Shown piece after piece: positions 8,002-63,520 of a stretch of 64,000 nt of DNA (positions are counted from its first letter, which is position 1; every line of letters begins with the position of its first letter). The translations under genes and the position numbers were made by a program. Below the pieces are notes generated by a model. The model had not been told where the DNA came from and ran no database searches. It worked only from the letters and a program-made list of their open reading frames with translations. The stretch is from a candidate division WOR-1 bacterium RIFOXYB2_FULL_42_35 (lineage in GTDB: Bacteria; Margulisbacteria; WOR-1; O2-12-FULL-45-9), in NCBI GenBank assembly GCA_001771545.1, contig MEUC01000002.1, positions 3,909-67,908 on the forward strand, in the 5' to 3' direction.

Positions 8002-8894
8002 GCCCGCAACTCGGAACTCGGAACCCGAAATTAATAGATAAGTTCATCAACTACCTCAAGACCGAACGCAATTACTCACCACATACAACCAGCAACTACC
8101 AACGCGACCTAATCTTTCTCATGGATCTTTTAAAGGGGAAGAAATTTGATCGCTCGGCTGCACGGGAATACTTGATTGCCTTGGAACAAAAACATTTTTC
8201 CCGTCGTTCAGTGGCTAGAAAGCTTTCTGCGGCACGCTCATTTTTCCGTTATCTCTTGAGAGAGAAACTGGTTGAGCAGAATCCGTTTGCCAACTTAGTA
8301 ACCCCTAAGCTGCCTAGAAAACTCCCCAACTTCCTCTATCCGGAAGAACTGGACCGCTTACTGAAAGGTCCTGATTTAAAGGCTCCCCTTGGTCTACGCG
8401 ACAAAGCTATCTTGGAAATGATTTATGGCACAGGGCTACGGGTAGCGGAACTTATTATGATTAACAAGAACGATGTTGATTTTGAGGAAGGAGAAGTAAA
8501 GGTCTTGGGTAAAGGTTCTAAAGAACGGATTGTTTTGTTTGGTTCTCATGCTAAAGGCGCCCTATTAACATATCTAAAAGACGCCAGGGATAAACTCAGA
8601 AGCAATAAAGAAATTGCGGCTTTTTTTGTTAATCGTCGCGGCGGCCGTTTAACCGCTCGATCGATCGAAAGGATGCTAGTATATTATAGTAAAAAGGCAG
8701 GAATAACCAAGAAGGTAACTCCCCACACTCTAAGACACTCCTTTGCTACCCATCTTTTAGCTGGCGGCGCTGACCTTCGAATGGTTCAGGAATTGCTTGG
8801 GCATGTTTCACTTTCAACCACTCAAGTCTACACCCATATTACCAAAGAACGCCTCAAGGAAGTCTACGATTCTGCTCATCCACGATCGAGTTAG
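7998..8894 (+). CDS. xerC: Tyrosine site-specific recombinase XerC/XerD
   Basis: C-terminal catalytic region RHSFATHLLAGGADLRMVQELLGHVSLSTTQVYTH. The N-terminus carries an extra MSPQLGTRNPK extension encoded by a heptamer repeat. Confidence 0.88.
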   Translation: MSPQLGTRNPKLIDKFINYLKTERNYSPHTTSNYQRDLIFLMDLLKGKKFDRSAAREYLIALEQKHFSRRSVARKLSAARSFFRYLLREKLVEQNPFANLVTPKLPRKLPNFLYPEELDRLLKGPDLKAPLGLRDKAILEMIYGTGLRVAELIMINKNDVDFEEGEVKVLGKGSKERIVLFGSHAKGALLTYLKDARDKLRSNKEIAAFFVNRRGGRLTARSIERMLVYYSKKAGITKKVTPHTLRHSFATHLLAGGADLRMVQELLGHVSLSTTQVYTHITKERLKEVYDSAHPRSS

Positions 8895-11610: not shown

Positions 11611-11763
11611 AATAGAAGTTGGGTTTTGGTTGTGGAAGCTGGTCTGGAAGTTAGAAATGGTTGTGGAAGCTGGAATTTTCTAGCTTCAAGCTTCTACTTC
11701 TAACATCTTAACTAGCATCTAAAACAAACAACTAGCTTCAAATAAACAGGGGGTAAAAATAGA

Positions 11764-16139: not shown

Positions 16140-17353
16140 TGGGCATCAATGTTTTATTAGATAAATGCACCGGTTGTACCCTATGTATCAAGGCTTGTCC
16201 CTTCCAAGCCATTGAAATGAAGGAAGTCGAAGGATTTCCTCGTAAAAAAGCTGTTATTGACTTAGATAAGTGCACACTTTGTAATGCTTGTGTTGCCTCT
16301 TGTAAATTCACGGCCATTGAAATTAAAGCCGAGAAAGAAACCTCAACTGATTTATTTCACTATAAAGGGGTTTGGATTTTTGCGGAACAACGCGAAGGGA
16401 AAGTTCAATCAGTTGCTTATGAGTTATTGGGCGAAGGCAAGAAACTAGCTGCTGACCTTAAAACCGATGTTTCCGCTGTCCTTTGCGGTGGAGAAAACAT
16501 TGAGGAAGAAGTTGCCAACCTATTTGCTTACGGCGCTGACAAGGTTTACCTTCTACATCATGACGAACTAAAAGATTATAAATCCCTCCCCTACACTCGG
16601 GCTGTGTCAGAATTAATAACCAAACATAAGCCGGAAGTTTTCTTACTTGGCGCAACAACTATGGGTCGAGATTTGGCCGCAAGATTAGCCATCCGTGTTG
16701 GTGCAGGGTTAACAGCTGACTGTACTGGCTTGGCAATTGATCCCGAAAAAAAAATATTGCAACAAACCCGCCCAGCCTTTGGCGGCAACATCATGGCAAC
16801 TATTATTGCCCCCAATAACCGACCACAAATGTCGACAGTGCGGCCTAAGGTTTTTAGAAAAGCGGAAAAACAAGCTGGCAGAAAGGGTGAATTGATCAAG
16901 TTTAACCCAATCCTCAACCCCGAAGACCTAGTTGTGAAGCTAATCGAGATCCTTAAAGACGAGAGTGTTAAGGTTAACCTGCAAGAAGCAGAAATTATTG
17001 TTTCTGGCGGCCGCGGGATTGGGGATGCCAAGAATTTTACCATGATTAACGAGCTGGCCAAGGTTCTTGGTGGCGCTGTTGGCGCTTCTCGTGCAACTGT
17101 AGATGCTGGCTGGATCTCTGCCCATCACCAAGTGGGACAAACAGGCAAGACTGTTGCTCCTAAGCTTTATATTGCCTGTGGTATTTCCGGCAAGATCCAA
17201 CATCTGGTTGGCATGCAGTCTTCCGATATAATAGTAGCAATCAATAAAGACGCAGACGCCCCCATCTTTAAAGTCGCCACTTATGGCATTGTTGGTGACG
17301 TCCACGAATTTGTGCCGCTGTTGACCAGGAAGCTTAAAGAAATCCGCGGTTAA
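16139..17353 (+). CDS. etfA: Electron transfer flavoprotein alpha subunit with N-terminal 2x[4Fe-4S] ferredoxin domain (FixB/CarE-like)
   Basis: N-terminus CTGCTLCIKACP...CTLCNACVASC (two CxxCxxCxxxCP motifs) followed by the EtfA body. Start overlaps the etfB stop. Confidence 0.88.
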   Translation: MGINVLLDKCTGCTLCIKACPFQAIEMKEVEGFPRKKAVIDLDKCTLCNACVASCKFTAIEIKAEKETSTDLFHYKGVWIFAEQREGKVQSVAYELLGEGKKLAADLKTDVSAVLCGGENIEEEVANLFAYGADKVYLLHHDELKDYKSLPYTRAVSELITKHKPEVFLLGATTMGRDLAARLAIRVGAGLTADCTGLAIDPEKKILQQTRPAFGGNIMATIIAPNNRPQMSTVRPKVFRKAEKQAGRKGELIKFNPILNPEDLVVKLIEILKDESVKVNLQEAEIIVSGGRGIGDAKNFTMINELAKVLGGAVGASRATVDAGWISAHHQVGQTGKTVAPKLYIACGISGKIQHLVGMQSSDIIVAINKDADAPIFKVATYGIVGDVHEFVPLLTRKLKEIRG

Positions 17354-18495
17354 GTTATAATTTCCCCGCTCCACAATCTTTCCAAAAACTCTTGCCAGGG
17401 TAAAATCAAGATATTTTCCTCTAGCCTTGGCTTAGGGACAAGGGCAACAACAATTGAGCTTTTAGTTGTATATTCCTCATTAAAAGCTTTTAAGCCGCGT
17501 AAATGTTGCGCTCCAATATTTTCTGAAGATTTAACCTCAATTGCAACTTCGTGGTCGCCCAAGATAAAATCAACTTCTAATTGCGAGGCAGTTCGCCAAT
17601 AGGCCAAATTAAAGCTTTTGGCTGAATAGTGGCTGTAAGCAATTATTTCTTGTAAAATAAAGTGCTCAAATGCCCGGCCAAAATTTTCACTGCCCTGCTT
17701 AATATTCTCGCGCTTTAATAAATAGTTGGCAACTCCAACGTCGAAAAAATAAAAACGGGGCGCTTGGATCACCCGGCGTTTGGGTCTTTTTTGGAAAGAC
17801 GGCACAAAGCGGCCAATCAGCGTATCAAGCAAGATCTGAAAATAACCTTTTACTGTCACGGCGCTGACACCGCAGTCAGCCGCCAGGTTTTGGTAATTTA
17901 CTATTCCGCCATTGCTAAAAGCCGCCGCCTCCAAAAACCTGGCAAAGGCTGGCATGTTGCGGGTAACGGCTTCGGCAGCAATTTCTTCTTTTAGATAATC
18001 AGCTATATAGGCTTGCAAAAGCAATTCTGGCTTGGCGGCTAAATAATGCCGGGGCAGCAAGCCATGATTGACCGCACGCAGCAAATCGAACTGGGGTATT
18101 TCCTTGTAAACCAAAGGAAATAATTCATAACGCAAAGCTCTTCCTCCCAGCAAGTTTGCCCCGCCGCGTTTAAGCTTGCGCGCGCTGGAACCGCATAAAA
18201 TAAATTGCATCCCCTGGTTAACAATCATCCATTGCACTTCATCAAGCAAAGCAGGGATCTTTTGCACTTCATCAATAATAACCGGATTATTGCCCGGGGG
18301 TTTAGCCAAAAGCTCTTTACGCAGTAAGCTGGGGTTGGCGGTCAAGCGGGCAAATTCATCGGAAAGCAACAAATCATATCTGGGAGAATGGGGAAAATGC
18401 GACTGCAAAAGAGTGCTTTTGCCTGTTTGTCTTGCTCCCCATAAAAAGCAAGATTCTTGGCCTAAATCAGTAAATTTTTGTTCTCTTTTATACAT
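17350..18495 (-). CDS. AAA+ ATPase with C-terminal DUF4143 (ATP-binding protein of AAA_14/DUF4143 family)
   Basis: Walker A GARQTGKSTLL near the N-terminus; 381 aa; its own TTGACA-N16-TATAAT promoter at about 18520-18553 (minus strand). Confidence 0.75.
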   Translation of the reverse strand: MYKREQKFTDLGQESCFLWGARQTGKSTLLQSHFPHSPRYDLLLSDEFARLTANPSLLRKELLAKPPGNNPVIIDEVQKIPALLDEVQWMIVNQGMQFILCGSSARKLKRGGANLLGGRALRYELFPLVYKEIPQFDLLRAVNHGLLPRHYLAAKPELLLQAYIADYLKEEIAAEAVTRNMPAFARFLEAAAFSNGGIVNYQNLAADCGVSAVTVKGYFQILLDTLIGRFVPSFQKRPKRRVIQAPRFYFFDVGVANYLLKRENIKQGSENFGRAFEHFILQEIIAYSHYSAKSFNLAYWRTASQLEVDFILGDHEVAIEVKSSENIGAQHLRGLKAFNEEYTTKSSIVVALVPKPRLEENILILPWQEFLERLWSGEIIT

Positions 18496-18623
18496 GGTTA
18501 GTCATGATAAACTAAATATGAGATTTATTATATCATGATAAACAGAATTGTCAATGGCGCGGCAAATTGTTACCTGCTTGGGCCTGTGCCGCTGTTGACC
18601 AGGAAGTTGCAGGAGATTAGGAG

Positions 18624-18842
18624 CTAATCAGGCTTTTTTGTTTCGGGTAGACCAAGCCACCTATCTACCCTTGGTCCCGTAATAGGGCTAGCCCACAAAG
18701 CTAGTAAACCCATTCCCGCTATGGTTGCAAGCGGAGCTAGAACTACAAAAAAAACAGCCGTTTTCACATTGTGCAAAAAAATTTCTCTTGGGGTGGTTGG
18801 GATCGATGGTTTTCTAGGGCTATTTACAATTGACATTGACAT
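18624..18842 (-). CDS. Small hydrophobic/membrane protein (72 aa), hypothetical
   Basis: AGGAGA RBS 7 nt upstream; one predicted TM segment AVFFVVLAPLATIAGMGLLALWA. Confidence 0.45.
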   Translation of the reverse strand: MSMSIVNSPRKPSIPTTPREIFLHNVKTAVFFVVLAPLATIAGMGLLALWASPITGPRVDRWLGLPETKKPD

Positions 18843-18873
18843 AGTTTATTTCTCCTTTGCAAACAAAATTTAG

Positions 18874-19248
18874 ATGCCGCTCTGCTTTTTGCTTCTACTC
18901 TTTGCTGAGAGCTCTGAAAAATTGACTCTCAAGCTCTCGCTCGTCAAACTTTCCTTCACCCAAATGTTTATCGTTAATACCCCCCCCCGATTTCACTTTT
19001 TCTCAAAATTCCTGAAAAATATTTTTGGGGTCATTGGTTACACCCGGGATGATCAGCCTGACCATCGGGAATGGACTAAAATCAATGCTTCCTTTTCTAT
19101 GAAGATTCGGCTCGATCAAAATAACCCTGAAGGCTGGAATGGCTTTCAAGCCCTGATTACCACTTATATGCGCTGGTATGTGCGGCCTAAACATTCGGAA
19201 GCATTGCTTAAATTCTTAAAAAAGATTCCTTGCTATGAGATTAGCTGA
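18874..19248 (+). CDS. Hypothetical protein (124 aa) containing a C9 homopolymer tract
   Basis: ORF without a clear RBS; the poly-C run 18980-18988 lies inside it. It may be a phase-variable or decayed gene. Confidence 0.3.
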   Translation: MPLCFLLLLFAESSEKLTLKLSLVKLSFTQMFIVNTPPRFHFFSKFLKNIFGVIGYTRDDQPDHREWTKINASFSMKIRLDQNNPEGWNGFQALITTYMRWYVRPKHSEALLKFLKKIPCYEIS

Positions 19249-19569
19249 AGCGCGCAAACTCCTTAAAAAGCACTATCGACACCATGAAGAGTGGACTTGT
19301 GGACAAGCTAAAATTTAGGCCACTGGATCGGACAGCAACCCCCGCTTTGACCAAAGAATAGAAATCTTTTTGGATTTAAGCCCTTATTCCGTAGATATCA
19401 AGAAAGTTGCCGCCTTACTTAAATTGTTTGATAAATTGGGAAGAAAAATTTTCTTCGGCCGCCACCTGCGGCGAAGATAAAAACTCCCAAATGTTTAGAC
19501 TTTTATCATTATCCATATTTGGATAATGGCCATAGCCAACCAGCCTAAATTTTGCTAAAATATCCTAAT

Positions 19570-20430
19570 ATGAAAACAGCCTTTGTGTTTCCCGGCCAGG
19601 GCTCGCAAACGGTCGGGATGGGTAAAGATCTGGCTGAATCTCTGCTAGATCAAGCTAACCAAATATTGGGTTTTGATCTCAAAAAGCTCTGTTTTGAAGG
19701 TCCGGAAGAAGAACTTAAGAAGACCGAGATCACTCAGCCTGCTATTCTAACTGTCAGCGTGGCTGCCTTCCAACAACTCGCAACCCGCAACCCGCAACCC
19801 GCAACAGTAGCTGGCCACAGCTTGGGAGAATACTCTGCACTAGTAGCAGCTGGAGCTATTAAGTTTGGAGATGCGGTTAAGATCGTTAACCTCCGCGGTA
19901 AGTTTATGCAAGAAGCTGTGCCAATTGGCCAAGGAGCCATGGCCGCTATTATTGGTGGGGAACGAGCTAAAATTGAAGAGGTTTGCGCTGGGATCGAGGG
20001 TGTCTGGCCAGCCAACTTTAACTCTCCTGGTCAAATCGTTATTTCCGGCCAAAAAGAGGCTGTTGAAAAGGCTTCTGCTGCTTGCAAGGATGCCGGAGCA
20101 AAAAGAGCCATCCCCTTGCCTGTTTCCGCTCCTTTTCATTGCCCACTCATGCAGCCTGCTGCTGATAAATTAAAAATGGAACTTGATAAAATTGAAGTCA
20201 AAGACGCAACTATTCCTGTTATTGCCAACGTTACAGCTGCTGCGGTAACCAGCGCTGCTGAAATTAGAGACTTATTAGTCAAACAAGTCACCTCCCCTGT
20301 TTTGTGGGAGGATTCTGTTAAGAAAATGATTGCTGATGGAGTGAGTTCGTTTGTTGAAGTTGGGCCTGGCAAGGTTTTGTCTGGGCTAATTAAAAAGATT
20401 GATAGAAACGTAGAAACTAGTAATGCGTAA
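19570..20430 (+). CDS. fabD: Malonyl-CoA:ACP transacylase
   Basis: MKTAFVFPGQGSQTVGMGKDL...AGHSLGEYSALV. Contains an in-frame (CAAC[CT]CG)4 repeat at 19774-19801. Confidence 0.93.
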   Translation: MKTAFVFPGQGSQTVGMGKDLAESLLDQANQILGFDLKKLCFEGPEEELKKTEITQPAILTVSVAAFQQLATRNPQPATVAGHSLGEYSALVAAGAIKFGDAVKIVNLRGKFMQEAVPIGQGAMAAIIGGERAKIEEVCAGIEGVWPANFNSPGQIVISGQKEAVEKASAACKDAGAKRAIPLPVSAPFHCPLMQPAADKLKMELDKIEVKDATIPVIANVTAAAVTSAAEIRDLLVKQVTSPVLWEDSVKKMIADGVSSFVEVGPGKVLSGLIKKIDRNVETSNA

Positions 20431-20492
20431 CGGGTAATGCGAATAGGGAATAATACAATTCTCATTCCCCATTACTTCATTCTCATTACTTT
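20419..20492. repeat. GTAATG-family palindromic intergenic element, copy A (overlaps fabD stop, upstream of fabG)
   Basis: AGTAATGCGTAACGGGTAATGCGAATAGGGAATAATACAATTCTCATTCCCCATTACTTCATTCTCATTAC. Confidence 0.7.
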
Positions 20493-20503
20493 AGGAGGTT
20501 ATC

Positions 20504-21235
20504 ATGAAACTTAAAGACAAAGTCGCTCTTATAACCGGATCCGCGCAAGGCATTGGTAAATCAATTGCCCAAGCCATGGCGGCCGAAGGAGCAAAGGTTG
20601 TAATTTCTGATGTTAATCTTGAGCTGGCAGAACAAACCGCCCAAGAATTTGGCCCGGATACGCTGGCCTTAAAACTCAACGTAGCAGATAACAACGAAGT
20701 TGACGCTACAATTAAACAAATCGTAGAAAAACTGGGACGCCTGGATATAGTGGTAAATAATGCCGGCATAACCAAAGACGGCTTGCTGATCCGCATGAAA
20801 AAAGAAGACTGGGACGCAGTTATCAATATTAATTTAAGTGGCGTATTTAATGTTGCCAAAGCCGCGGCTATTGTAATGATGAAACAGCGCTCCGGTAAAA
20901 TCGTTAACATTGCTTCTATAGTCGGACAAATGGGTAATTTTGGCCAGGCTAATTATTCTGCCTCCAAAGCTGGTGTAATTGGTTTTACTAAAACAGCTGC
21001 CAAAGAATTGGCCAGCCGAGGAGTAACAGTTAATGCCATTGCTCCGGGCTTTATTAAAACCGCAATGACTGATAAAATACCAAATGAGATTAAGCAAAAA
21101 ATGCTGGAGCAGATTCCTTTGGGGAAACTTGGTCTGCCGGAAGATATTGCCAAAGCAGCCGTGTTTTTAGCCAGCAGTGATGCTGACTATATTACCGGTC
21201 AAGTTCTCGCCGTTAACGGCGGGATGTACATGTGA
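20504..21235 (+). CDS. fabG: 3-oxoacyl-ACP reductase
   Basis: MKLKDKVALITGSAQGIGKSIA...; SDR motifs; GGAGG RBS. Confidence 0.93.
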   Translation: MKLKDKVALITGSAQGIGKSIAQAMAAEGAKVVISDVNLELAEQTAQEFGPDTLALKLNVADNNEVDATIKQIVEKLGRLDIVVNNAGITKDGLLIRMKKEDWDAVININLSGVFNVAKAAAIVMMKQRSGKIVNIASIVGQMGNFGQANYSASKAGVIGFTKTAAKELASRGVTVNAIAPGFIKTAMTDKIPNEIKQKMLEQIPLGKLGLPEDIAKAAVFLASSDADYITGQVLAVNGGMYM

Positions 21236-21244
21236 TCAAAGTTT

Positions 21245-21320
21245 TGAGTAATGTGTAATGGGTAATGTGAATAGGGAATAATAATATTCACATTACGCAT
21301 TACTATGTTCACATTACTAA
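21245..21320. repeat. GTAATG-family palindromic intergenic element, copy B (between fabG and acpP)
   Basis: AGTAATGTGTAATGGGTAATGTGAATAGGGAATAATAATATTCACATTACGCATTACTATGTTCACATTAC. Confidence 0.7.
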
Positions 21321-21345
21321 TAAAAACGAAGGGAGGTGAGTTGAA

Positions 21346-23795: not shown

Positions 23796-26700
23796 ATGAA
23801 AGATCAAAGATCAAAGATCAAAGATCAAAACAAATCCAAAGGTAAAAGCTCCGAAATCCAAACAAATCTAATAATCAAAGGTTCAAGGATTTTGATCTTT
23901 GGGCTTGGATCTTGGAGCTTGTTTTGCGCTTTGATCTTGGGACTTTGGATTTCTTGCCCCTCATTGGCCTACGCTCAAAGCACGATCTATCCTAAATTCG
24001 ACATTTCCGGTTATAAGAAGTGGGAATATAAACGGGTAGATGTTGATCCTTCAAGCAACTATTTCAGCGGCTTAACCCAGCTGGGTGGTTTTTATCAAAC
24101 TTACAGCGGAGGACCATGGCAAGAAAGGCTTAAGCTTAAAATTATCGGCGAGCTCTCAAAAGATCTTTCTGTTACGTACAATATCAATCAACAGCCCGAA
24201 ACCCCCGACCAATTTGACGTACAAGTCAAATATAAAGACACAGAACTAACCTTCGGTGATTTTTCTGCAACTTTTTCTGGCAACGAGTTTGCTTCCGTTT
24301 CTAAAACATTGAATGGGGTAAAGTTGACCTCTAAAAATTCCTGGCACGACGTTCTGGTGGTGCCCTCAACAAAACTTAAAAGCCAAACCCAAGCCTTAAC
24401 CGCCCAAAAAGGCAATAATACCAAGGGCCCCTATAGTCTTGGTCGCGGCTCAATCGTTGAAGACTCTGAAAAGGTTGAACTCAACAACGTCCCATTAAAG
24501 CGCAATGTTGACTATACCATTAACTACTTTGAAGGCAAGATTACCTTCAATAAAATATTAACCACTCTCGATGAGTTTAAATATAGCTATGAGTACACCA
24601 ACATGCTGGATCTCTTTTTCCCTTCGCTCTCAAAAAGAGACTTTTTTGGTTTTCAATCAAGATTTACAATTGATCCCAAAGAAGTTGGCAAGCCACCGCT
24701 CAAAAAGCAGTTGGTTGTTTTATCCGATCAACAGCAATTTCCTTCTTCGGGCAGCCTTGAGGCCGGTTTAACGGAAGCAGAAAGCAGTGGCCGCTATCTA
24801 ATCAACAATTACCCCCTCGTCGATTTCAGCGAAAAAATAACTTTTCTTGGTGCGGAGCTGCAAAAAAATACTCATTATATTGTTCGTTACGAGACAGGAG
24901 AAATAAAGCTTTTAACCAATACCTTGCCAACCGCAGCCGACCCCCTGACTGTTCAGTACAAATACTATAAAGTTTCCGCGGAAACAGACGCAATCTTAGG
25001 CATTGGGGGGCGCGGTCCTTATCAACTGAAAAATAATGGGCTTGTCTCCGAGAGTGAACGAGTGGAGGTTAATGGCCAGCTCAATGTCCGTAATTTAGAT
25101 TATTCTATTGATTACACCACCGGCCAAATTGTTTTTGGTATTCCGGTTAGTGAAACTTCACAGATTAAAGTTTCATACAAATACAAAGCCCTGGAAACCC
25201 CCGTTGAAACAAAGTCTAAATTTCCAACCGAACTAACAGTTGGCGCAACTTATCTGCGAGAATCAGCCAAAAAAACCAGCGGAACCAACATTGTTACAGT
25301 AATTGAAAGTATCACCGGACAAACAATTATTAACAAGAATTACCTAGCCTATCTAGCCAACCGTCCTTTGGCTGACAGCAGCGAAGCAACCACAACCCTA
25401 ATTGTTAAGGTTGATGGGCAAACCCTGACCCGGGAGGTTGATTATACTGTTCCCACAACCTACGTTGATCCCAGCACCGGCTACGCAGTTGTTACCCCGG
25501 AAGCAACCCTAGCCTACATCAATGATCGCGCTGATACTACTAATGGTTATGGCACCGGTACAATCTTATTTTTAAACCCGAGCACTGTTCTGGCTACCAG
25601 CTCAGTTACCGTAACCTATACGTATCAAAAAAACATTGTTGGCAAATTTTCCGGTGTGGGCAACGAAACCACTGGCCCATATTATTTAAGAAACGTTAGA
25701 AATGTTGTCCCCGGATCGGAAACTCTTCAGGTTTGGGAAAGGGGCTCCTCGACCATTACCACCTACACCCGCAACTCAAGCTTTGAACCAGACGCTGGCA
25801 GCACCGGCTATTCAATCAATTATGACGCTGACAACCCTTACATAACTTTTAACAATGGACTTTCCAGCACCAAGAACTTTCAGTTGATTTATCAATATGT
25901 TCCACCCTTGGGAGCAACAAATAACGCTGATTTAGCCCAATCCATTCTCGGTTTTGATACCAGTTTTAAAATCGGCAACCTCTTTAAAATAGACAGCGCT
26001 TATGCCCGCAGTGAAACTGACCAGGTTTTTATGGCTGAAGCAACCAGCGAAAGTTTTACCGGCAACGGAACCAAAACGTATTTACTACACTCTAGCGCGA
26101 CTCTGATCGAAAACAGTGAAAAAGTTTCGGTCAATAATAATACCCTTAATAAAGACTTGGACTATTTTGTTAGCTATACTAGCCCTGGCAAGGTTGTTTT
26201 CTATTATATTACCCCAACAACTGCCGATGCTATTGTTGTTGACTATAAATACCAATCCCTTTCCGGTATAGCCTCCGGGCAAACCAGTAAAGTTGACAGC
26301 GCTTATAGCCTTGGCGCAGAAACCAAAGTTTTTGGAGACACCTTGACCCTCTCTGGGGTGACCAAAAAGATTGGTCAAGATTTTACCCCCATGGGCGGCA
26401 CATCAATTGGTTTGGGCTCGAGTTATAATGCCTATGATCTTAAATTCCAACAAAAAAACTTCCACTCATTAACTGCTAATTATTCCTACAAAGAAAACAC
26501 CAATCCTTTAAGCACTTACCGGGATCGTTTTTTAAAAAGTTATGACAACTCAATAAACCTTGGGATTGACCCTAACAAGTTAGTAAAAATAGCTCTTTAC
26601 TATCGAGACTACCGGACAATTGACGACCTTTTGCCTGCTAGCACCGCCCACGCCAGTGACAACCAACAACAATCTTATTCCCTTAGTCTTGTGCCAAAAA

Positions 26701-28020: not shown

Positions 28021-30300
28021 TTAAAGGGCGATTAACTTGCCCTTGGCAATTACTTTGTTTCCTGATATTACTTGAAAAATATATACACCGTTGGGTACAC
28101 TTGTCCCAAACAGATCAATTCCATTCCAACTGGGATCATTACTGCCGGCCTTGGCTCCGTTTTCACCAGCAATATAATTCTGCTGCCAGATTAGCGTCCC
28201 GGTTAAATCAAAAAGATAAATACTGGTGTTGAAGTTTCCTTGCAGACTATAATTAAAAGTCACCGTGGAGGCAGAACTGCGCACAAAAGGATTGGGTAAA
28301 GCATAGGCCATTGGCAAACCAGTTTGGGTTTCCGCCGCCTTGGCGGGTTCCGAACTGTTTTGCAGATTAAGTAAAATTGTTTCCAGGCTCGTTGCCCCTG
28401 TTTGATCATAAGCTGTTAATTTTAAAGTGTATTGGCCGGATAATCCGGCTGTTTCCCAGGTTCCCAAAACGCCAGCTTCTACTGTGCTATAAGATTCCTC
28501 ACCATAAGCCGGTAATGGCCGCAATCTTATTTTGGTAAAAATTGTTGGGGAAGCGCCCTGGCCATATTCCAGATAATATTTATCGAAATTAAAATCTGTA
28601 GCTGTTCCGGAAATAGTAACATCTCCGGTAACGGTGGCTCCCGATGTAGGGGTAGCAATCAGGGCTTGGGGCGGCGTGTTATCAATAACTATCGCGATTG
28701 AGGCTTCATCACTAACTCCCGCAACTGTAGAATAGACATTAACTGCAACAGTATAGTTGCCGTCTGTTACAGCTGTTGTATCCCAAGTTGCCAACAAATT
28801 AGCGGTTGCGGCGGTTGTGCTGCTGCCAATACTGGCCACAACACTGCCAGCCTGCAAAGCTAGAACTTCATAACTGCTAAAAGTTTGACCGGCAGCTGTC
28901 CCATAAATTTCTACGCTCCCTTTGATGTATGAATTGGACTCTGGCGAGGCAATTGCTGCGGTTATTGCTGCCAAAGCCTTACTAACATTAATCCTGCCAC
29001 TCCCTAAATCACCTAGGTACGTTGGGTTTTGCGCATCAATATTATCAGCAGAGGTTGTCACTGCATTGGTTATGTCTGCAACAGTCATAGCCGGATATTG
29101 GGCTTTCATTAAAGCAGCTAAGCCCGCCACAAAAGGAGCAGCAAAAGAGGTTCCATTGTTCCCCAAATAATAACTGCCATCCATGGTAGTCGTCATTATG
29201 CTGCTGCCGGGAGCACAAACACTGATCCAACTGCCATAATTAGAAAAGCTTGATTTAATATCGCTACTATCAACAGACGCAATTGCCAGCACTGTATCGT
29301 AACCGGCAGGATAGCGCAGAGAGGTAACGTTGTCATTGCCGGCAGCTGCTACCAGAACGGCCCCATTGTTATAAGCATCGGAACAAGTACTCTGCAGGCC
29401 AGAGGGAGAAGAATTAAAACCAAAACTCATGTTCATCACATCAACATTACGTGAGCTAGCATAAGCAATAGCGGCTTTTATATTAGTATTTGTTCCTGTT
29501 CCACTACTGTCTAAAACTTTAAGCGGCAAGATCTTTGCTTGCCAATCAACACCAGCCACTCCCTTACCATTATTGGTCACTGCGCCAAGGACACCAGAAA
29601 CTTTGGTGCCATGACCAAAATCATCTTCCGGGTCATCATCATTATTAACAAAGTCCCAACCATGCGAGTCAATCTTGGCAGCTAAATCTTCATGGTTAGA
29701 ATCAATGCCAGAATCCAAAACTGCAATAACCACACTGGAAGAACCCGTGGTCTGATCCCAGCCGGACGGGGCCGATATATTTGTTAATCCATATTGACTA
29801 CTGTAATAAGTGTCATTGGGAATAGTCGCATACGCTTGGGCAATCTCGTCTGGAGAAGCTGAGACAACATCAGGATTATTTTGGTATTCCGCTGCTACAG
29901 TTTCAACATTTTTATCTTCAGGAAAGTAAATAACATAGTAATCTTTGAGATGGGTCCAATCTGGTCGGTTTTCTAAAGCCTTGCTATAAAGCTGTTTAAT
30001 TTTATAAACCCCGGTTTTGTAGCTTAAGGCTTGAACCGAATTAGACAGGAACTGGGCTTTATCAACAGAAAAGGCTGTTGCCCCTTGAGGTAAAACAATT
30101 TGTTCCGGTTTAAACTGGACCAAGATTTGACCGGGGGCATAGTCAGCCAGAGATAAAGATGACAAAGAAACCCAAAACCCAAAGATCAAAATCCCCAGCA
30201 AGCTCCAAATCCCAAATCCCAAGTTCCAAATTGCTTTTGATTTTGAAATTGGAGCCTGAAGCCCATTTTGATCTTTGATCTTTGATCTTTGGTCTTCCAT
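28021..30300 (-). CDS. Subtilisin-like serine protease (peptidase S8) with a C-terminal FlgD-Ig / T9SS-type sorting-domain-like tail and the shared extended N-terminal leader
   Basis: Catalytic triad blocks VAVLDSGID (Asp), HGTKVSGV (His), GTSFAAPFVAGLAAL (Ser). C-terminus LPNPF...IYLFDLTGTLIW...PNGVYIFQVISGNKVIAKGKLIAL. N-terminus MEDQRSKIKDQN...NLGFGIWSLLGILIFGFWVSLSSLSLA|D. Confidence 0.85.
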   Translation of the reverse strand: MEDQRSKIKDQNGLQAPISKSKAIWNLGFGIWSLLGILIFGFWVSLSSLSLADYAPGQILVQFKPEQIVLPQGATAFSVDKAQFLSNSVQALSYKTGVYKIKQLYSKALENRPDWTHLKDYYVIYFPEDKNVETVAAEYQNNPDVVSASPDEIAQAYATIPNDTYYSSQYGLTNISAPSGWDQTTGSSSVVIAVLDSGIDSNHEDLAAKIDSHGWDFVNNDDDPEDDFGHGTKVSGVLGAVTNNGKGVAGVDWQAKILPLKVLDSSGTGTNTNIKAAIAYASSRNVDVMNMSFGFNSSPSGLQSTCSDAYNNGAVLVAAAGNDNVTSLRYPAGYDTVLAIASVDSSDIKSSFSNYGSWISVCAPGSSIMTTTMDGSYYLGNNGTSFAAPFVAGLAALMKAQYPAMTVADITNAVTTSADNIDAQNPTYLGDLGSGRINVSKALAAITAAIASPESNSYIKGSVEIYGTAAGQTFSSYEVLALQAGSVVASIGSSTTAATANLLATWDTTAVTDGNYTVAVNVYSTVAGVSDEASIAIVIDNTPPQALIATPTSGATVTGDVTISGTATDFNFDKYYLEYGQGASPTIFTKIRLRPLPAYGEESYSTVEAGVLGTWETAGLSGQYTLKLTAYDQTGATSLETILLNLQNSSEPAKAAETQTGLPMAYALPNPFVRSSASTVTFNYSLQGNFNTSIYLFDLTGTLIWQQNYIAGENGAKAGSNDPSWNGIDLFGTSVPNGVYIFQVISGNKVIAKGKLIAL
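30268..30296. repeat. (AGATCAA)x3-4 heptanucleotide repeat at the 5' end of the subtilase CDS (minus strand)
   Basis: Plus strand tttgatctttgatctttgatctttggtc. Confidence 0.8.
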
Positions 30301-30344
30301 TCAGGTTGAAGTATACCATGATCTAGGAGTATAATAAATTCACC

Positions 30345-37134: not shown

Positions 37135-38883
37135 ATGCAGTCCCAAATCAAAATCCTCCCCGAAGACCTGATTAATAAAATTGCCGCCGGTGAAGTGATT
37201 GAACGGCCGGCTTCTGTAGTCAAAGAATTGGTTGAAAATGCCATTGATGCTAAGGCCACAAAAATCAGCGTGGAAATTCAAAGCGCTGGTCGAAAATTAA
37301 TTCGCGTCTCTGATAATGGCCAAGGGATGACTAAAGATGAAGTTAAGCTTGCCATTGAACGACATTCGACCTCGAAAATCAACAAGTTAGACGACCTGTT
37401 CAATATTCAAAGTCTTGGGTTTCGTGGAGAAGCCCTTCCTTCTATCGCTAGTGTGTCGCGGCTGGAAATTAGAAGTGGGGTTAGGGGTGAAGATGCCGGT
37501 ATGGAAGTGGGAACTGAGATGTTGGTAGAGGGAGGGAAGGTAGAAAAATTGGAGGAGGCAGGTTGTCCGGTTGGAACCACTGTCTCTGTCAAAGATTTGT
37601 TTTTTAACACTCCAGCCAGGAAAAAATTTCTGAAATCCCCAGCCACAGAAATGGGGCACATTGGTGACATTGTCACAAAATATGCCCTGGTCAACCCACA
37701 GATTGCTTTTTCTCTTGTTTCTGACGGCAAACCACTTTTTTCTTCGGCCGGAACAGGTAAGTTACTTGATACGATTGTCTCTGTTTACGGAGCTGAGCTG
37801 GCTAAAGGGTTAATCGAAATTAACTATAGTAATGTAAGGGGCTATGTTAATAAGCCCAATATAAGTCGGATTGGCCGCGATTATATGTCATTCTTTGTTA
37901 ATGGCCGATATGTTAAAAACTTTTTGCTTAACCGGGCTTTGGAAGATGCCTATAGAACTTTGATTCCTAACAACCGCCACCCAATTGCTGTCCTTTTTCT
38001 GGAAGTTAATCCTAAGGAAGTTGACGTTAACGTCCATCCCAGCAAGCGGGAAGTTAAATTTCTGAAAACTAACGAGGCAATGGAAGCTGTGCGTAGTGCG
38101 GCAAAAACTGCCCTGTCAAAGATTCTAGATAATCAGGGTATCGGTGGATCAGAACGAGAAGATCAGAATACCAGATCATCAGAGTATCAGACAGGAAAAC
38201 AAAGCTGGGAACCTGGCATGGCAGATGTCTTGTTTCCACCAGAGGAAGTTTTTCCGGCTGATAACTCGCAACTAGTAACTCATAACCTTGTCGAGATGGA
38301 AGTTACCTCCATTCAACCGTATTTTCCCATTTACCAATTCAAAAATACTTATATCATTGCAACGGATGGAGAAGAATTGGTTCTAATTGACCAACATGCT
38401 GCACAGGAGAGGATCATTTATGACCAGCTAAGTAGCACAGTAGCCAGTGAGCCGGGTAGCCAAGTCCGACTGTTGCCAGAAACTATTGAGCTAGACACAA
38501 AGGCAACGATTATCTTACAAGAAAACTTGGGCTATTTAAAAAGTTTAGGCTTTGATCTAGAAGAATTTGGGGCTAATTCGTACCTCATGCGTTCTGTGCC
38601 TGCTTCGGCAGTTAAATCATCAGCAAAACAGTTGGTCATGGACATTATTGCTGAGTTGCAGAGCCTAGGCAAATCCGCCCAGCTTGAAACTAAGCAAGAA
38701 AACATCCGTAAAACCATTGCCTGCAAAGCTGCTGTTAAGGCTGGAGATAAATTAAGCCGGGCAGAAATGAGCGGTCTGATCAGAGATTTATATAGTACGC
38801 AAAACCCCCTCACCTGCCCCCATGGCCGGCCTACTATTATAAAGATCACTGAAGATGAGTTAAAGAAACACTTTAAAAGGTAG
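37135..38883 (+). CDS. mutL: DNA mismatch repair protein MutL
   Basis: IKILPEDLINKIAAGEVIERPASVVKELVENAIDA; DNGQGM; C-terminal dimerisation/endonuclease region. Confidence 0.92.
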   Translation: MQSQIKILPEDLINKIAAGEVIERPASVVKELVENAIDAKATKISVEIQSAGRKLIRVSDNGQGMTKDEVKLAIERHSTSKINKLDDLFNIQSLGFRGEALPSIASVSRLEIRSGVRGEDAGMEVGTEMLVEGGKVEKLEEAGCPVGTTVSVKDLFFNTPARKKFLKSPATEMGHIGDIVTKYALVNPQIAFSLVSDGKPLFSSAGTGKLLDTIVSVYGAELAKGLIEINYSNVRGYVNKPNISRIGRDYMSFFVNGRYVKNFLLNRALEDAYRTLIPNNRHPIAVLFLEVNPKEVDVNVHPSKREVKFLKTNEAMEAVRSAAKTALSKILDNQGIGGSEREDQNTRSSEYQTGKQSWEPGMADVLFPPEEVFPADNSQLVTHNLVEMEVTSIQPYFPIYQFKNTYIIATDGEELVLIDQHAAQERIIYDQLSSTVASEPGSQVRLLPETIELDTKATIILQENLGYLKSLGFDLEEFGANSYLMRSVPASAVKSSAKQLVMDIIAELQSLGKSAQLETKQENIRKTIACKAAVKAGDKLSRAEMSGLIRDLYSTQNPLTCPHGRPTIIKITEDELKKHFKR

Positions 38884-45868: not shown

Positions 45869-46118
45869 GATTGCTTTCCTCCTGTTTTGTCTCTAGAGAG
45901 AGCTCCGAAAAACTCGCTTTCTCCGCGTAGGCGACCCTCTTAGGGTCGCAAGTTGTCGTCGAGAAGCAGAGCCTAAGAGGCTCCGCTACGCGATTTGAAG
46001 GGCAATTTTTCGGAGGTCTCCTAGATAGATATCTATCGCAATATTTATACAAAAATTTCACTAAATTAAGGGGGTTGTTTCGAGATTATGAAAAAGTAAC
46101 TCTGCGGGGAGCTGTCTG

Positions 46119-47703: not shown

Positions 47704-49422
47704 TTAAGCGCGGTTGTCCACGTCCTGACAAAGTTGATCAAGAATCTCTGCGATGTTTTTAGTACCTAAGTCCCCTTCTTTTCTGTGGCGAACAGAGACG
47801 GTCTCGGATTCCAGCTCTTTATCGCCAACAATTAACATGTAGGGAATTTTTTGCAATTGCGCATTCCTAATTTTAGCCCCGATCTTTTCATTGCGTTTAT
47901 CAATCTCAACACGAAAGCCCCTTTGTTGTAATTGCTGGGCAATTTTATCGGCATAGTCCAGATGGCTATCTGTTATTGGTAAAAGACTAACCTGAACTGG
48001 AGCCAACCATAAGGGAAAGGCTCCGGCATAGTGTTCTATTAGAGCTCCTAAAAAGCGCTCAATACTGCCTAAAATAGCCCGGTGAACCATAACCGGAGTT
48101 TGCTTTGAACCATCATTAGCTGTATAAATTAAATCAAACCTTTGCGGCAGGTTAAAATCTACTTGAACAGTTGGTCCCTGCCAAACCCGGCCCAAGGCAT
48201 CTTTAAGTTTAACATCTATCTTGGGACCGTAGAAAACCCCTTCCCCAGGATCAACCTCAAAGGGAACATTTCTATCTTGTAAAGATTTTTCCAGGATTGC
48301 GGTAGCTTTATCCCAGTTTTCTATTGTGCCGGCATATTTTTCCGGTCGAGTAGAAAGCTTAACTTCATAATCAAACTTAAAGACCTGCATAATATAATGT
48401 ATAAAGTCGAGCACGGAGATAATTTCATCTTCTAGCTGATCTAACCGACAAAAAATATGAGCATCGTCCTGGGTAAAACCACGCACTCTAAGTAAACCAT
48501 GTAAAACCCCTGATTTTTCGTAACGATAAACTGTGCCTAGCTCAAAATAGCGCACCGGCAGATCTCGATAACTAGTTAACTTCCTCTTATAAATAAGAAT
48601 GTGTCCGGGGCAATTCATCGGCTTAACCACATAATCCTGCTCATCAATCTGCATAAAATACATGTTTTCTTTGTAATAATTAGTGTGGCCGGAAGTGTTC
48701 CACAAATCTATTTTGGCAATATGGGGAATGCTAACTAGCTCATAGCCACGCTTGAGATTTTCTTCTTTTAAAAAGTTTTCTAAAGTGTTTTTAACCGTTG
48801 CACCTTTGGGATGATAATAAACAAAGCCGGTGCCAGCTTCTTCGTGAATAGAAAAAAGATCCAGCTCTTTGCCTAGTTTACGATGGTCTCTTTTTTTAGC
48901 TTCTTCTAAGTTCTCCAGATATTTGTCTAAATCTTCTTTTTTTTCAAAGGCTGTGCCATAAATTCGCTGCATAACTGGATTAGTCTCAATCCCCCGCCAG
49001 TAGGCCCCGGCAATAGAAAGAACTTTAAAGGCTTTGATCTTGCCTGTTGTTTCAACGTGCGGCCCCCGACAAAGGTCAACAAAGTCAGCATTCTTGTAAA
49101 GGGTGACTTTTTCCGCTTCAAGCTCACTTAATATTTCAACTTTGTATTTCTCCCCCTTCTCCTCCATAAGCCTGATAGCCTCTTCTTTTTTCATCTCAAC
49201 ACGCTCAAACTTGTGGTTTTGTTTGATAATATGTTTCATCTTCTTTTCGATTTTAACCAGGTCTTCGGGGGTTAATTGTTCCGGCAAGTCAAAATCGTAG
49301 TAAAAGCCATTCTCAATCGCTGGCCCAATGCCAAGCTTTACGCCGGGAAACAACTCTTGGACAGCTTGAGCCATCACGTGTGAAGCAGAGTGTCGTAGGG
49401 TTTCGAGGTTTGTTTCGTTCAT
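47704..49422 (-). CDS. thrS: Threonyl-tRNA synthetase (short form, lacks N-terminal TGS domain)
   Basis: MNETNLETLRHSASHVMAQAV...; class II aaRS motifs; 572 aa. Confidence 0.92.
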   Translation of the reverse strand: MNETNLETLRHSASHVMAQAVQELFPGVKLGIGPAIENGFYYDFDLPEQLTPEDLVKIEKKMKHIIKQNHKFERVEMKKEEAIRLMEEKGEKYKVEILSELEAEKVTLYKNADFVDLCRGPHVETTGKIKAFKVLSIAGAYWRGIETNPVMQRIYGTAFEKKEDLDKYLENLEEAKKRDHRKLGKELDLFSIHEEAGTGFVYYHPKGATVKNTLENFLKEENLKRGYELVSIPHIAKIDLWNTSGHTNYYKENMYFMQIDEQDYVVKPMNCPGHILIYKRKLTSYRDLPVRYFELGTVYRYEKSGVLHGLLRVRGFTQDDAHIFCRLDQLEDEIISVLDFIHYIMQVFKFDYEVKLSTRPEKYAGTIENWDKATAILEKSLQDRNVPFEVDPGEGVFYGPKIDVKLKDALGRVWQGPTVQVDFNLPQRFDLIYTANDGSKQTPVMVHRAILGSIERFLGALIEHYAGAFPLWLAPVQVSLLPITDSHLDYADKIAQQLQQRGFRVEIDKRNEKIGAKIRNAQLQKIPYMLIVGDKELESETVSVRHRKEGDLGTKNIAEILDQLCQDVDNRA

Positions 49423-49477
49423 TGCAAAATAAAGTATAACAGAACAATGATGGGGGACACAAGGCAGGAGAGAACAA

Positions 49478-49557
49478 AGTAATGCGTAATGGGTAATGCG
49501 AATATTCTCATTACCTGCTGGCCGGCAGGCACATTACTCTATTCACATTACTTTCAT
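49478..49557. repeat. GTAATG-family palindromic intergenic element, copy C (between thrS and a small ORF)
   Basis: AGTAATGCGTAATGGGTAATGCGAATATTCTCATTACCTGCTGGCCGGCAGGCACATTACTCTATTCACATTAC. Confidence 0.7.
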
Positions 49558-50998: not shown

Positions 50999-51191
50999 GA
51001 TGTAATTATTATACTCACAAACAACACTTCTGACAAACAAATAATTAACAATTAATAATTAAACAATTAACAACTTGGTATCCCCTTCGGCGAGATATTA
51101 CATATAACCAACAAATACATTGTTATTAATTTAGTCATTGTTAATTATTGATTTAGATTTCAGTGTATAATATCCCCACAAGGAGATAATT

Positions 51192-61729: not shown

Positions 61730-63520
61730 ATGAGTTGTCCTACGCTTTATCCTAAACGCTACGATGTCATTGTCATCGGTGCCGGGCATGCGGGGATTGA
61801 AGCCGCCTTGGCCGCTGCTCGTTTGGGTTGCCAGACCTTGCTCTTAACAATGAACATCGACACCATTGCTTTTATGCCTTGTAATCCGGCCATTGGCGGT
61901 CCAGCCAAAAGTCAGCTTGTGCGAGAAGTTGATGCCTTGGGCGGGCAAATGGGAATTACAACAGACTTAACCTTTCTGCAAACGAAAACCTTAAACACCA
62001 ACAAAGGCCCGGCCGTCCATGCTTTACGTGCGCAATCAGACCGTTTGCAATACCATCAAGTTATGAAACGTCTGTTAGAAGAACAAAAAAATCTTGATTT
62101 AAAACAAGGGATGGTCGAAGAAATCTTGACGAATAAAACTCGCAACTCGCAACTCGCAACTATCGGGGTTAGAACAAAGCTAGAAACCATTTATCATGGC
62201 AAAACTGTTGTTGTAACAACTGGGACCTTTTTAAAAGGACGAATCCATACTGGCATGGTACACATGGAAAGTGGCCGGGCTGGAGAATTTCCAGCCGTAG
62301 GCCTATCTGCCAGTTTAAAAAAGCTAGGCTTGAAACTCGGTCGGCTTAAAACCGGCACCCCAGCCAGGTTAAATAAAAGATCCATAGATTTTTCCAAGAT
62401 GAGAATTCAACCGGGAGACGAACCGGTCAAACAGTTTTCTTTTACTTGGGAATACAAACAATATGGTTTAAAGGTTCCGGAAAACCCTCAACTAGAACTG
62501 CCTCAGGTTCCCTGTCACTTAACCTGGACAAATAATAAGACCCATAGAATTATAAGAAAAAACTTACATCGTTCCCCTCTTTTCTCCGGAAAAATCAAGG
62601 GGACGGGCCCAAGGTATTGTCCTTCTATTGAGGACAAGGTTGTTCGCTTTCCCGACAAAGACCGGCAGCAATGTTTTATTGAACCAACCGGCCGGGACAC
62701 CCTAGAAATGTATGCCCAAGGAATGAATAGTAGTTTACCGGCAGATGTTCAACTGGCGATGTTCCAAACTATGCCCGGCCTGGAAAAAGTGGAAATTATC
62801 CGCCCTGGTTATGCGGTTGAGTATGATTATGTGCCGCCTTATCAGCTCACTTATTCATTAGAAACAAAAATAGTTGGCGGTCTGTTTTGTGCCGGACAGA
62901 TTAACGGCACTTCAGGCTATGAAGAAGCTGCGGCTCAAGGCATTGTTGCTGGTATCAACGCAGTAATGAAGGTCAAAGGGAAAAAGCCAGTTCTGTTTGG
63001 CCGGGAAGAGTCTTATATTGGCACCTTAATTGACGACTTAATTACTAAAGATATTGAAGAGCCCTATCGCATGCTAACTTCACGATCAGAATACCGACTG
63101 CTGCTTAGGCAGGACAATGCTGACCTGCGTTTAACAGAAAAAGGTCATAAGGTTGGACTAATCTCAAAGAGCAGATATAACTGTTTTCGGAAAAAGAAAG
63201 AAGCACTTGAAGATAAAGCCAGGATTTCTCCGGAAGTATCGGAGCAAATCGATATTACCCAAAAATACGCTGGCTACATCGTCAGACAGCTGCAGCAAGT
63301 GGAAAGAGCTAAAAGATTAGAATATAAAACCATCCCTAAAAACCTAGATTTTAAGAACCTGCACGGCCTCTCAAAAGAAGCCAGATATAAACTGGAAAAG
63401 CTCCGGCCCGCTTCCATTGGCCAGGCCACCAGGATTGCCGGGGTCTCCCCTGCTGACATCTCTGTGCTGCTGGTTCACCTGGAAACATATAGACGCAAAA
63501 CCGGCTGCGTGATAAAATAA
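61730..63520 (+). CDS. mnmG: tRNA uridine 5-carboxymethylaminomethyl modification enzyme MnmG (GidA)
   Basis: [23 protein letters not shown]... (FAD fold). Contains an in-frame (CAACTCG)3 repeat at 62136-62160. Confidence 0.93.

Follow-up and report, generated by a model that had tools for sequence, protein, structure and literature searches.

Filamentous cyanobacteria are rich in hairpins built from heptamer repeats, which other phyla carry sporadically; the generation of such hairpins is thought to involve replication slippage in a 7-nt register together with strand switching at hairpins. Small dispersed repeats (SDRs) of Nostoc punctiforme, 21-27 nt long, were reportedly described by Elhai and colleagues in 2008 as mobile by comparisons of filled and empty sites, as lying in heptamer repeat contexts and as forming nested insertions, and the units of the short tandemly repeated repetitive (STRR) sequences STRR1-3 are said to have been given by Mazel in 1990 as CCCCAGT, TTGGTCA and CAACAGT. 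STRR sequences are known from Calothrix and Anabaena, and heptanucleotide units are over-represented among long simple sequence repeats (SSRs), at least as the original reports are summarised later (Mazel et al. 1990, Mrazek et al. 2007 as summarised in PMC4692102, PMC4679880). The GGGAATC/GGGGAYT heptamer repeats of Xanthomonas and Nostoc include inverted pairs (PMC4692102), and TAACTGA repeats occur in Beggiatoaceae, Cyanobacteria and Bacteroidetes, with shorter, repeat-free spacers in relatives; horizontal spread of the latter is suspected, "but no mechanism is evident" (PMC4679880). WOR-1, or Saganbacteria, is a sibling lineage of Cyanobacteria (PMC6349859). Here we analyze three palindromes, lettered A, B and C, in a 64,000-nt stretch of WOR-1 contig MEUC01000002.1 (the window). 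Each is an imperfect palindrome of ~75-100 nt with arms that consist of a few GTAATGN heptamers in tandem, and we consider it probable that one small, dispersed DNA element, non-autonomous and of the heptamer STRR/long-SSR hairpin class, gave rise to all three by copying and insertion within the WOR-1/Saganbacteria lineage. What is new is the occurrence of this class in another phylum and with another unit, the class itself being long known in cyanobacteria; a literature search found no paper linking heptamer repeats with Saganbacteria, Margulisbacteria or Melainabacteria.

The original prediction had reported three related GTAATG palindromes at these sites (Table 1), and sequence inspection, shuffling and profile searching all agree with it. 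The core GTAATGNGNAT occurs 7 times in the window against 0.38 expected, a count reached in 0 of 100 shuffles, and GTAATGYG occurs 12 times against 2.2 expected, with 11 of the 12 inside copies A, B and C. Searching the 64 kb with a profile hidden Markov model of the copies yields A, B and C and no other site, with E-values of 1e-19 to 1e-20. The unit had been described as a hexamer iteron; it is instead the heptamer GTAATGN, repeated with a period of 7, and Tandem Repeats Finder calls period-7 tracts at 21248-21269, 49479-49500 and 20461-20490. Over 72 nt, a span that takes in their common loop GAATAGGGAATAATA, copies A and B match at 83% of positions; identity among the three left arms is 76-88%, with a family consensus for arm 1 of GTAATGY GTAAYGG GTAATGY GAATAGG GAATAAT. 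The element ends read AGTAATG...CATTACT, and three GTAATGN units in a row bring a TAA into each of the three reading frames. Read backwards, GTAATG is unchanged, which makes it a mirror repeat as well.

All three copies fold as long hairpins, as had been proposed, and do so about equally well on either strand: A at -21.0 kcal/mol (z -4.0), C at -25.7 kcal/mol (z -4.1) and B, the most perfect hairpin, at -29.4 kcal/mol (z -6.9), its palindrome extending weakly into the flanks (GTTTT...AAAAC, ~21238-21330). Copy C is without the A/B loop; a GC hairpin of 16 nt, CCTGCTGGCCGGCAGG (49514-49529), is nested in it at the place of a single G in B and occurs nowhere else in the window.

A fourth copy came from metagenomes. 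Of the genome-wide profile scan suggested in the original prediction, the part covering the window returned the three sites above, and a scan of metagenome contigs with a specific 25-mer, in a collection evidently without the source contigs, returned two loci only (L-numbers denote the other loci compared), one of which, L132, holds the additional element (profile E-value 5e-17). Both of its arms are common to A, B and C; with C, for example, it shares CATTACTCTATTC[T/A]CATT. Proteins related to the RecG of L132 bear the names Margulisiibacteriota, WOR-1 or Saganbacteria, which places the locus in the same clade. Here the element stands downstream of coaD, before the next gene, and its arm 1 is on the antisense strand; A and B are in sense orientation. 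The orthologous coaD junction in L136 is a 14-nt gap without the element. The two arms of the element are non-identical, and each keeps its own order of unit variants in all four copies, conserved as GTAATGY GTAAYGG GTAATGY GAAT in arm 1 and as GTAATGN GAAYNNA GTAATGN GKAATGN GAAT in arm 2; the copies thus descend from one element by copying and not through separate slippage. The family is therefore not found only upstream of fatty-acid genes, as had been considered, since copies also adjoin thrS and coaD, nor is it absent from other strains and loci, since L132 carries its copy at a non-orthologous site.

We then compared filled and empty sites in relatives found through FabG and ThrS protein matches, including six fab operons (L127-L130, L137, L138). 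The GTAATG element is absent from all six. In L127 and L128, whose FabG proteins are 92% and 91% identical to that of the window, fabD and fabG overlap and 17-20 nt separate fabG from acpP. The corresponding junctions measure 2 nt and 21 nt in L138 (FabG 78%) and 41 nt and 22 nt in L137 (FabG 78%). In L130 (FabG 81%) fabD/fabG holds an unrelated short hairpin and fabG/acpP is 18 nt, and in L129 (FabG 84%) fabD/fabG holds unrelated palindromes and fabG/acpP a different heptamer hairpin of GTCCNAN units (GTCCGAG GTCCAAA GTCCTAA ... TTGGACTTTGGAC). The spacers of the window, 73 nt (fabD/fabG) and 110 nt (fabG/acpP), are thus derived insertions, as the junctions of the relatives are compact and without the element, and the ancestral fabD/fabG/acpP junctions are, judging from these alignments, compact and translationally coupled. 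Copy C is likewise absent upstream of thrS in L134 (ThrS 90% identical), where flanking promoter-region motifs align with the window. Presence/absence polymorphism, proposed in the original prediction as the signature of a mobile element, is therefore seen at all three sites. Within the source population, the variants L121-L126 are 100% identical save for scaffold gaps, with no polymorphism seen among them, and identical FabG and ThrS proteins occur in the WOR-1 bins RIFOXY*_FULL_41-42 from the Rifle aquifer (e.g. GCA_001772415.1, contig METW01000001.1). Altogether, the copies are shown to be homologous, insertion-polymorphic, not fixed in orientation to transcription and dispensable at these loci.

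The gene context, confirmed here, puts two copies inside one operon and the third upstream of thrS. The cluster runs fabD (Acyl_transf_1), A, fabG, B, acpP (PP-binding), fabK and fabF, and further upstream plsX and fabH are followed by acyl-CoA dehydrogenase, amidohydrolase and electron transfer flavoprotein (ETF) genes and an AAA_14/DUF4143 ATPase islet before fabD; the rest of the window consists of housekeeping genes. The elements had been described as all intergenic, which holds for B, between genes, and for C, in a divergent spacer, but not for A: its first 12 nt overlap the 3' end of fabD, whose stop codon TAA (20428-20430) comes from the element. Copy A ends 3 nt upstream of the fabG ribosome-binding site AGGAGG (20493-20498), copy B ends ~14 nt upstream of that of acpP, and copy C lies upstream of a -10-like TATACT box of thrS that is conserved in relatives 15-20 nt before the thrS start codon.

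Insertion would have been into permissive non-coding slots, typically the short stretch that separates a stop codon from the following ribosome-binding site, or else a spacer distal to a promoter. Spread probably proceeded by DNA-level copying that acts on the hairpin, either by single-strand transfer of the kind associated with REPINs (doublets of repetitive extragenic palindromic (REP) sequences) and SDRs or by gene conversion between arrays. The elements would be essentially selfish or neutral and tolerated where the ribosome-binding site stays intact, their effects on expression being by-products. Copy A would have abolished fabD-fabG translational coupling and replaced the C-terminus and stop codon of FabD; the GTAATGN repeats would supply a three-frame stop; and A and B would place a stem-loop of -21 to -29 kcal/mol in the fab mRNA that may slow 3'-5' exonucleolytic decay. 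The filled/empty comparisons show hairpins entering tight, translationally coupled junctions of essential genes, in the case of fabD replacing the stop codon itself.

Several observations weigh against a copied, inserted element. No convincing target-site duplication or insertion motif is found at the four filled/empty sites; the insert is wholly palindromic, and its ends tend to read AAAG...CTTT. Among the window open reading frames (ORFs), Pfam finds no transposase, REP-associated tyrosine transposase (RAYT) or reverse transcriptase. The known copies are few, four at four unrelated sites in two genomes. Finally, the B slot of L129 shares the short flanks TCAA...ACGAA with the window, which points to a possible old insertion whose interior was overwritten in situ; slippage or conversion would then have played a larger part relative to transposition.

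To which known class the element belongs depends on features that can be compared one by one. Like STRR sequences and long SSRs, it has a 7-nt unit in tandem with variants, its units are dispersed, mostly intergenic and of several families per genome, its arrays vary between close relatives, and its host phylum is a sibling of Cyanobacteria. A scan of genome contigs with the pattern GTAATGNGTAANGGGTAATGNG listed chiefly simple (GTAATGG)n arrays, the source genome not being among the matches listed. Among these matches are many filamentous cyanobacteria, the arrays being common in Nostocales and Oscillatoriales, and also Bacteroidota (Saprospiraceae, Flavobacteriales), beta- and gammaproteobacteria, Omnitrophota, Chloroflexota, Endomicrobiales, Wallbacteria and Obscuribacterales; the arrays adjoin unrelated genes across these many phyla, and ~40% of those listed have a mirrored arm downstream. 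Unlike STRR sequences, the WOR-1 elements reside in a non-photosynthetic host, their units (GTAATGN, AAAGATC, AACTCGC) are not those of STRR1-3, their arrays are short (3-5 units per arm), and the whole two-armed hairpin with its fixed arm asymmetry behaves as the unit of copying. With the 7-nt tandem unit and the dispersed, multi-family units present, and the cyanobacterial host and STRR1-3 units missing, the strict STRR label does not apply; the broader heptamer-SSR class does.

Other small elements resemble it in part. SDRs, as reportedly described by Elhai and colleagues, are likewise under 100 nt, hairpin-forming, without a known transposase, mobile by filled/empty comparison and set in heptamer contexts, and the nested GC hairpin of copy C is reminiscent of their nested insertions; they share no sequence similarity with the element, however, and measure 21-27 nt, and the window has the nested hairpin once only. 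Miniature inverted-repeat transposable elements (MITEs) are also non-autonomous, palindromic and insertion-polymorphic, but here there is no target-site duplication at the four sites, no known parent insertion sequence, and the interior is a heptamer array. The repeats of Xanthomonas and Nostoc and the TAACTGA repeats likewise form heptamer arrays in intergenic DNA, in many cases immediately before a start codon; they vary in length and sequence between close relatives, shorter, repeat-free spacers being found in relatives, include inverted pairs capable of forming stem-loops and are sporadic in distribution, which suggests horizontal spread. They are mainly direct arrays with proposed G-quadruplex or protein-binding roles, whereas the GTAATG elements are obligate palindromes without G-quadruplex potential. 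The sporadic spread of GTAATG arrays over phyla is the same as that described for other heptamers (PMC4679880, PMC4692102).

REP sequences are defined by a GTAG or CGTC tetranucleotide heading a palindrome of 20-40 nt (PMC3733652). With REPs and REPINs (PMC3116915, PMC3733652) the element shares a short, non-autonomous, extragenic palindromic form, folding as a doublet hairpin, the lack of a target duplication, and positions between genes and within operons, where such sequences can stabilise upstream mRNA. It differs in that no GTAG/CGTC head is present, no RAYT is encoded in the window, and the arms are heptamer arrays and not a single conserved palindrome of 20-40 nt. REPs reach tens to hundreds of copies per genome; 3 copies of the element are seen in the 64-kb window. 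Of the explanations first offered, a lineage-specific, REP/MITE-like selfish element is the best supported, by the polymorphism, the fourth copy and the shared arm asymmetry; membership in REP/RAYT and MITE families itself is rejected, on the missing GTAG/CGTC head and target-site duplication respectively. As these fail on defining features and the period-7 excess of the window (below) matches STRR/long-SSR sequences, the heptamer STRR-like hairpin class is the right home. A sibling phylum of Cyanobacteria thus carries heptamer-repeat biology, and with unusually clean filled/empty comparisons.

We next weighed explanations that do without a mobile element. Copies A and B could be selected RNA stem-loops in the fab transcript that, in the manner of REP/BIME or cyanobacterial intercistronic hairpins, fix the relative levels of the fabD, fabG and acpP mRNA segments by barring decay, marking processing sites or causing attenuation; this deserves some weight, yet we think it unlikely. 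The two copies should indeed be transcribed, as the genes on either side run in the same direction and no promoter or terminator is called between them, their stems are stable (A -21, B -29 kcal/mol; z -4, -6.9), each stops 3 nt or ~14 nt short of the next ribosome-binding site, and the other heptamer hairpin in the fabG/acpP slot of L129 suggests that a hairpin before acpP may be useful. However, five of the six relatives manage with 17-22 nt between fabG and acpP, and three with an overlap or 2 nt between fabD and fabG, which makes the hairpin dispensable. Divergent promoters flank copy C, which lies upstream of the -10 box of thrS, and the L132 copy is antisense to its genes. Both strands fold alike, as expected of a DNA palindrome and not of an oriented RNA, and no compensatory changes are seen (both sides differ in 1 of 22 pairs, covariation term +1.12), a comparison that has no power with four near-identical copies. 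An RNA processing or attenuator role, put forward in the original prediction, is thus not the reason for the family, given the position of C, the antisense copy in L132 and the lack of a terminator signature and of covariation; as a side effect at A and B it may exist.

Growth of each hairpin in place, by 7-nt slippage and hairpin strand switching at every site without transfer of copies, would make the likeness of A, B and C a matter of convergence or gene conversion, and strikes us as improbable. In many bacteria no SSR class is more over-represented than that of heptanucleotides, which have been put down to slippage of the polymerase (Mrazek 2007, in the summaries of PMC4679880 and PMC4692102). 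The B slot of L129, with its other heptamer hairpin between similar outer flanks, fits such growth, as do the different homogenised units that each relative carries in one loop of FabD (below), a sign of rapid concerted turnover in place. Independent slippage would not, however, reproduce the shared unit order found in both non-identical arms of four copies at four unrelated sites in two genomes, nor the loop shared by A and B, and other units of the window (AACTCGC x4, AAAGATC x2) are likewise dispersed.

That the GTAATG/CATTAC half-sites form the operator of a dimeric regulator of fatty-acid synthesis, as the multiple inverted half-sites and the two copies inside the fab cluster might suggest, is very improbable, because the closest fab operons lack the element (six relatives, including those with 91-92% identical FabG) and other copies adjoin thrS and coaD; moreover, A and B lie between cistrons inside the operon and not at a promoter, the cluster holds no regulator gene, and the same heptamer arrays stand beside unrelated genes across many phyla.

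The original statement that the element is not a FapR, FabT or FabR operator, a T-box or a known REP consensus stands, on the lack of conservation, of an Rfam match and of a GTAG/CGTC head. A FapR, FabT or FabR operator was rejected since the element is not conserved upstream of related fab genes in the six operons, a T-box or riboswitch since there is no Rfam match and copy C lies upstream of the promoter, and CRISPR since there are no spacers. No Rfam family reached threshold, the sole match being mir-556 to copy B (24 bits against a threshold of 84), with none for C. An intrinsic terminator was likewise rejected, with no terminator-like site called within or at the ends of A and B, whose tails are TTTAGGAGG and AATAAAAAC. 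No promoter was called inside the elements, and BLAST against plasmids gave no matches. A tempting false lead, a novel fab regulator or riboswitch, is thereby removed.

The GTAATG family is one member of a period-7-specific repeat excess of this genome. Of the tandem periods from 4 to 11, period 7 alone is enriched: the window has 9 such arrays, and 0-1 for each other period at the same threshold. The unit families include GTAATGN (x3), AAAGATC (x2) and AACTCGC (x4), among others; further hairpins with period-7 arms and other sequences are listed in Table 1. Close relatives also have heptamer arrays, and a 22-kb sample of a relative with 80% ThrS identity has none.

Table 1. GTAATG elements and other period-7 features of the window
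Feature	Position	Strand	Context and details
GTAATG element, copy A	20419..20492	+	between fabD and fabG; arm 1 AGTAATGC GTAACGG GTAATGC GAATAGG GAATAAT, arm 2 mirrored
GTAATG element, copy B	21245..21320	+	between fabG stop (21235) and acpP ribosome-binding site/start (21346)
GTAATG element, copy C	49478..49557	+	divergent spacer between thrS (minus strand) and 81-aa ORF (49621, plus strand)
Hairpin of unrelated sequence	11612..11745	.	134 nt, GGAAGCT-type period-7 units, -53 kcal/mol, z -6.9; between fabH and acyl-CoA dehydrogenase gene
In-frame CAACYCG heptamer array	19774..19805	+	fabD variable loop QQLATRNPQPAT
AAAGATC-heptamer palindrome	23796..23945	+	inside 5' end of 1406-aa secreted-protein ORF
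AAAGATC-heptamer palindrome, second copy	30160..30303	-	5' end of S8 peptidase ORF
AATTAAC-heptamer inverted repeat, AT-rich	51030..51160	.	divergent dxr/asmA-like spacer; weak hairpin

Related arrays also colonise protein loops and signal peptides in frame. The ends of the second AAAGATC palindrome are 94% complementary to those of the first, whose left arm encodes a Lys/Asp/Gln-rich N-terminal extension of 29 aa (KDQRSKIKDQ...), absent from the homologues in L129 and L130, and whose right arm encodes the hydrophobic core of the signal peptide. The palindrome thus encodes a charged and then a hydrophobic segment and so resembles a signal peptide. The 1406-aa and S8 peptidase ORFs are convergent. 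In-frame arrays of the AACTCGC/CAACCCG type lie in four housekeeping genes, namely fabD, a xerC-like gene (8008-8031), the mutL linker (38263-38286) and the ORF at 61730-63520 (62137-62161). In the FabD loop that holds the fabD array, the units are CAACTTA/CAACTAA in L130 and CACGACT in L128, and L129 is without an array; that the arrays differ by relative, each internally homogenised, indicates concerted turnover of coding heptamer arrays. For annotators, such elements explain odd spacers, false N-terminal extensions and assembly breaks in metagenome-assembled genomes of this kind.

The arms of these hairpins follow a polarity. Among the matches listed, a (CCATTAC)n partner lies downstream of (GTAATGG)n in 43-55 of 120 loci and upstream in 2. 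Over all arrays in the sampled loci, a sample biased to loci picked for GTAATGG arrays, left arms have G>C in 33 cases and G<C in 2, right arms have C>G in 42 and C<G in 0, and left arms are purine-rich in 35 of 37 cases overall and in 15 of 16 without GTAAT units. Every hairpin element in the window follows the same rule, with the purine/G-rich arm 5'. This is not an artefact of gene orientation, since a palindrome is identical on both strands, and the stability of the stem is equal for either arm order. It is possible that purine-rich repeats were added in a 3'-end-directed manner at both sides of a break; equally, leading-strand template switching combined with strand-biased arrays is possible, as is selection for an A-left/T-right layout like that of a bidirectional terminator. 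Generalising the first of these, we offer as a long shot that heptamer-array palindromes are scars of polar, 3'-end-directed repeat writing and not products of symmetric slippage. At a break or gap, a templated polymerase, a reverse transcriptase or reiterative slippage synthesis would extend each 3' end in the 5'-3' sense with purine/G-rich heptamers, after which the ends would be joined. If true, this would account for the purine/G-rich arm standing almost always 5' of the centre, on both strands, across unrelated units and phyla, and would give a mechanistic basis to the sporadic distribution of heptamer-rich genomes, which resembles that of horizontal transfer. Whatever its source, the purine-arm-first polarity constrains, together with the arm asymmetry, models of how heptamer repeats are generated and spread.

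High-GC genomes of betaproteobacterial type carry (GTAATGS)n ... (CCATCAC)n hairpins (L133, 3929-4014; L024, L025 and L083) in which every unit of the second arm is off the perfect complement by the same base. This would allow a G-T or G-U wobble on one strand only and hints at a strand-specific RNA or single-stranded DNA structure.

At thrS, start calls differ between the ORF caller (572 aa, 49422) and NCBI (556 aa, 49374), and comparison of window 49374-49440 with L134 and L135, which puts the start ~15-20 nt past TATACT, suggests a very short or absent 5' leader and no T-box. Between etfA and fabD, ~2.2 kb of the window (17350-19550) hold the AAA_14/DUF4143 ATPase and two small ORFs, an accessory insertion in the cluster given that fabD directly follows etfA in L130 and L137. 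Another nested palindrome, GC-rich and not built of heptamers, lies between a GH16 gene and a bifunctional-nuclease gene (45869-46118; 121 nt, -55 kcal/mol, z -6.1), and as the same junction is only 98 nt in L134, it looks like a different class of inserted structured element.

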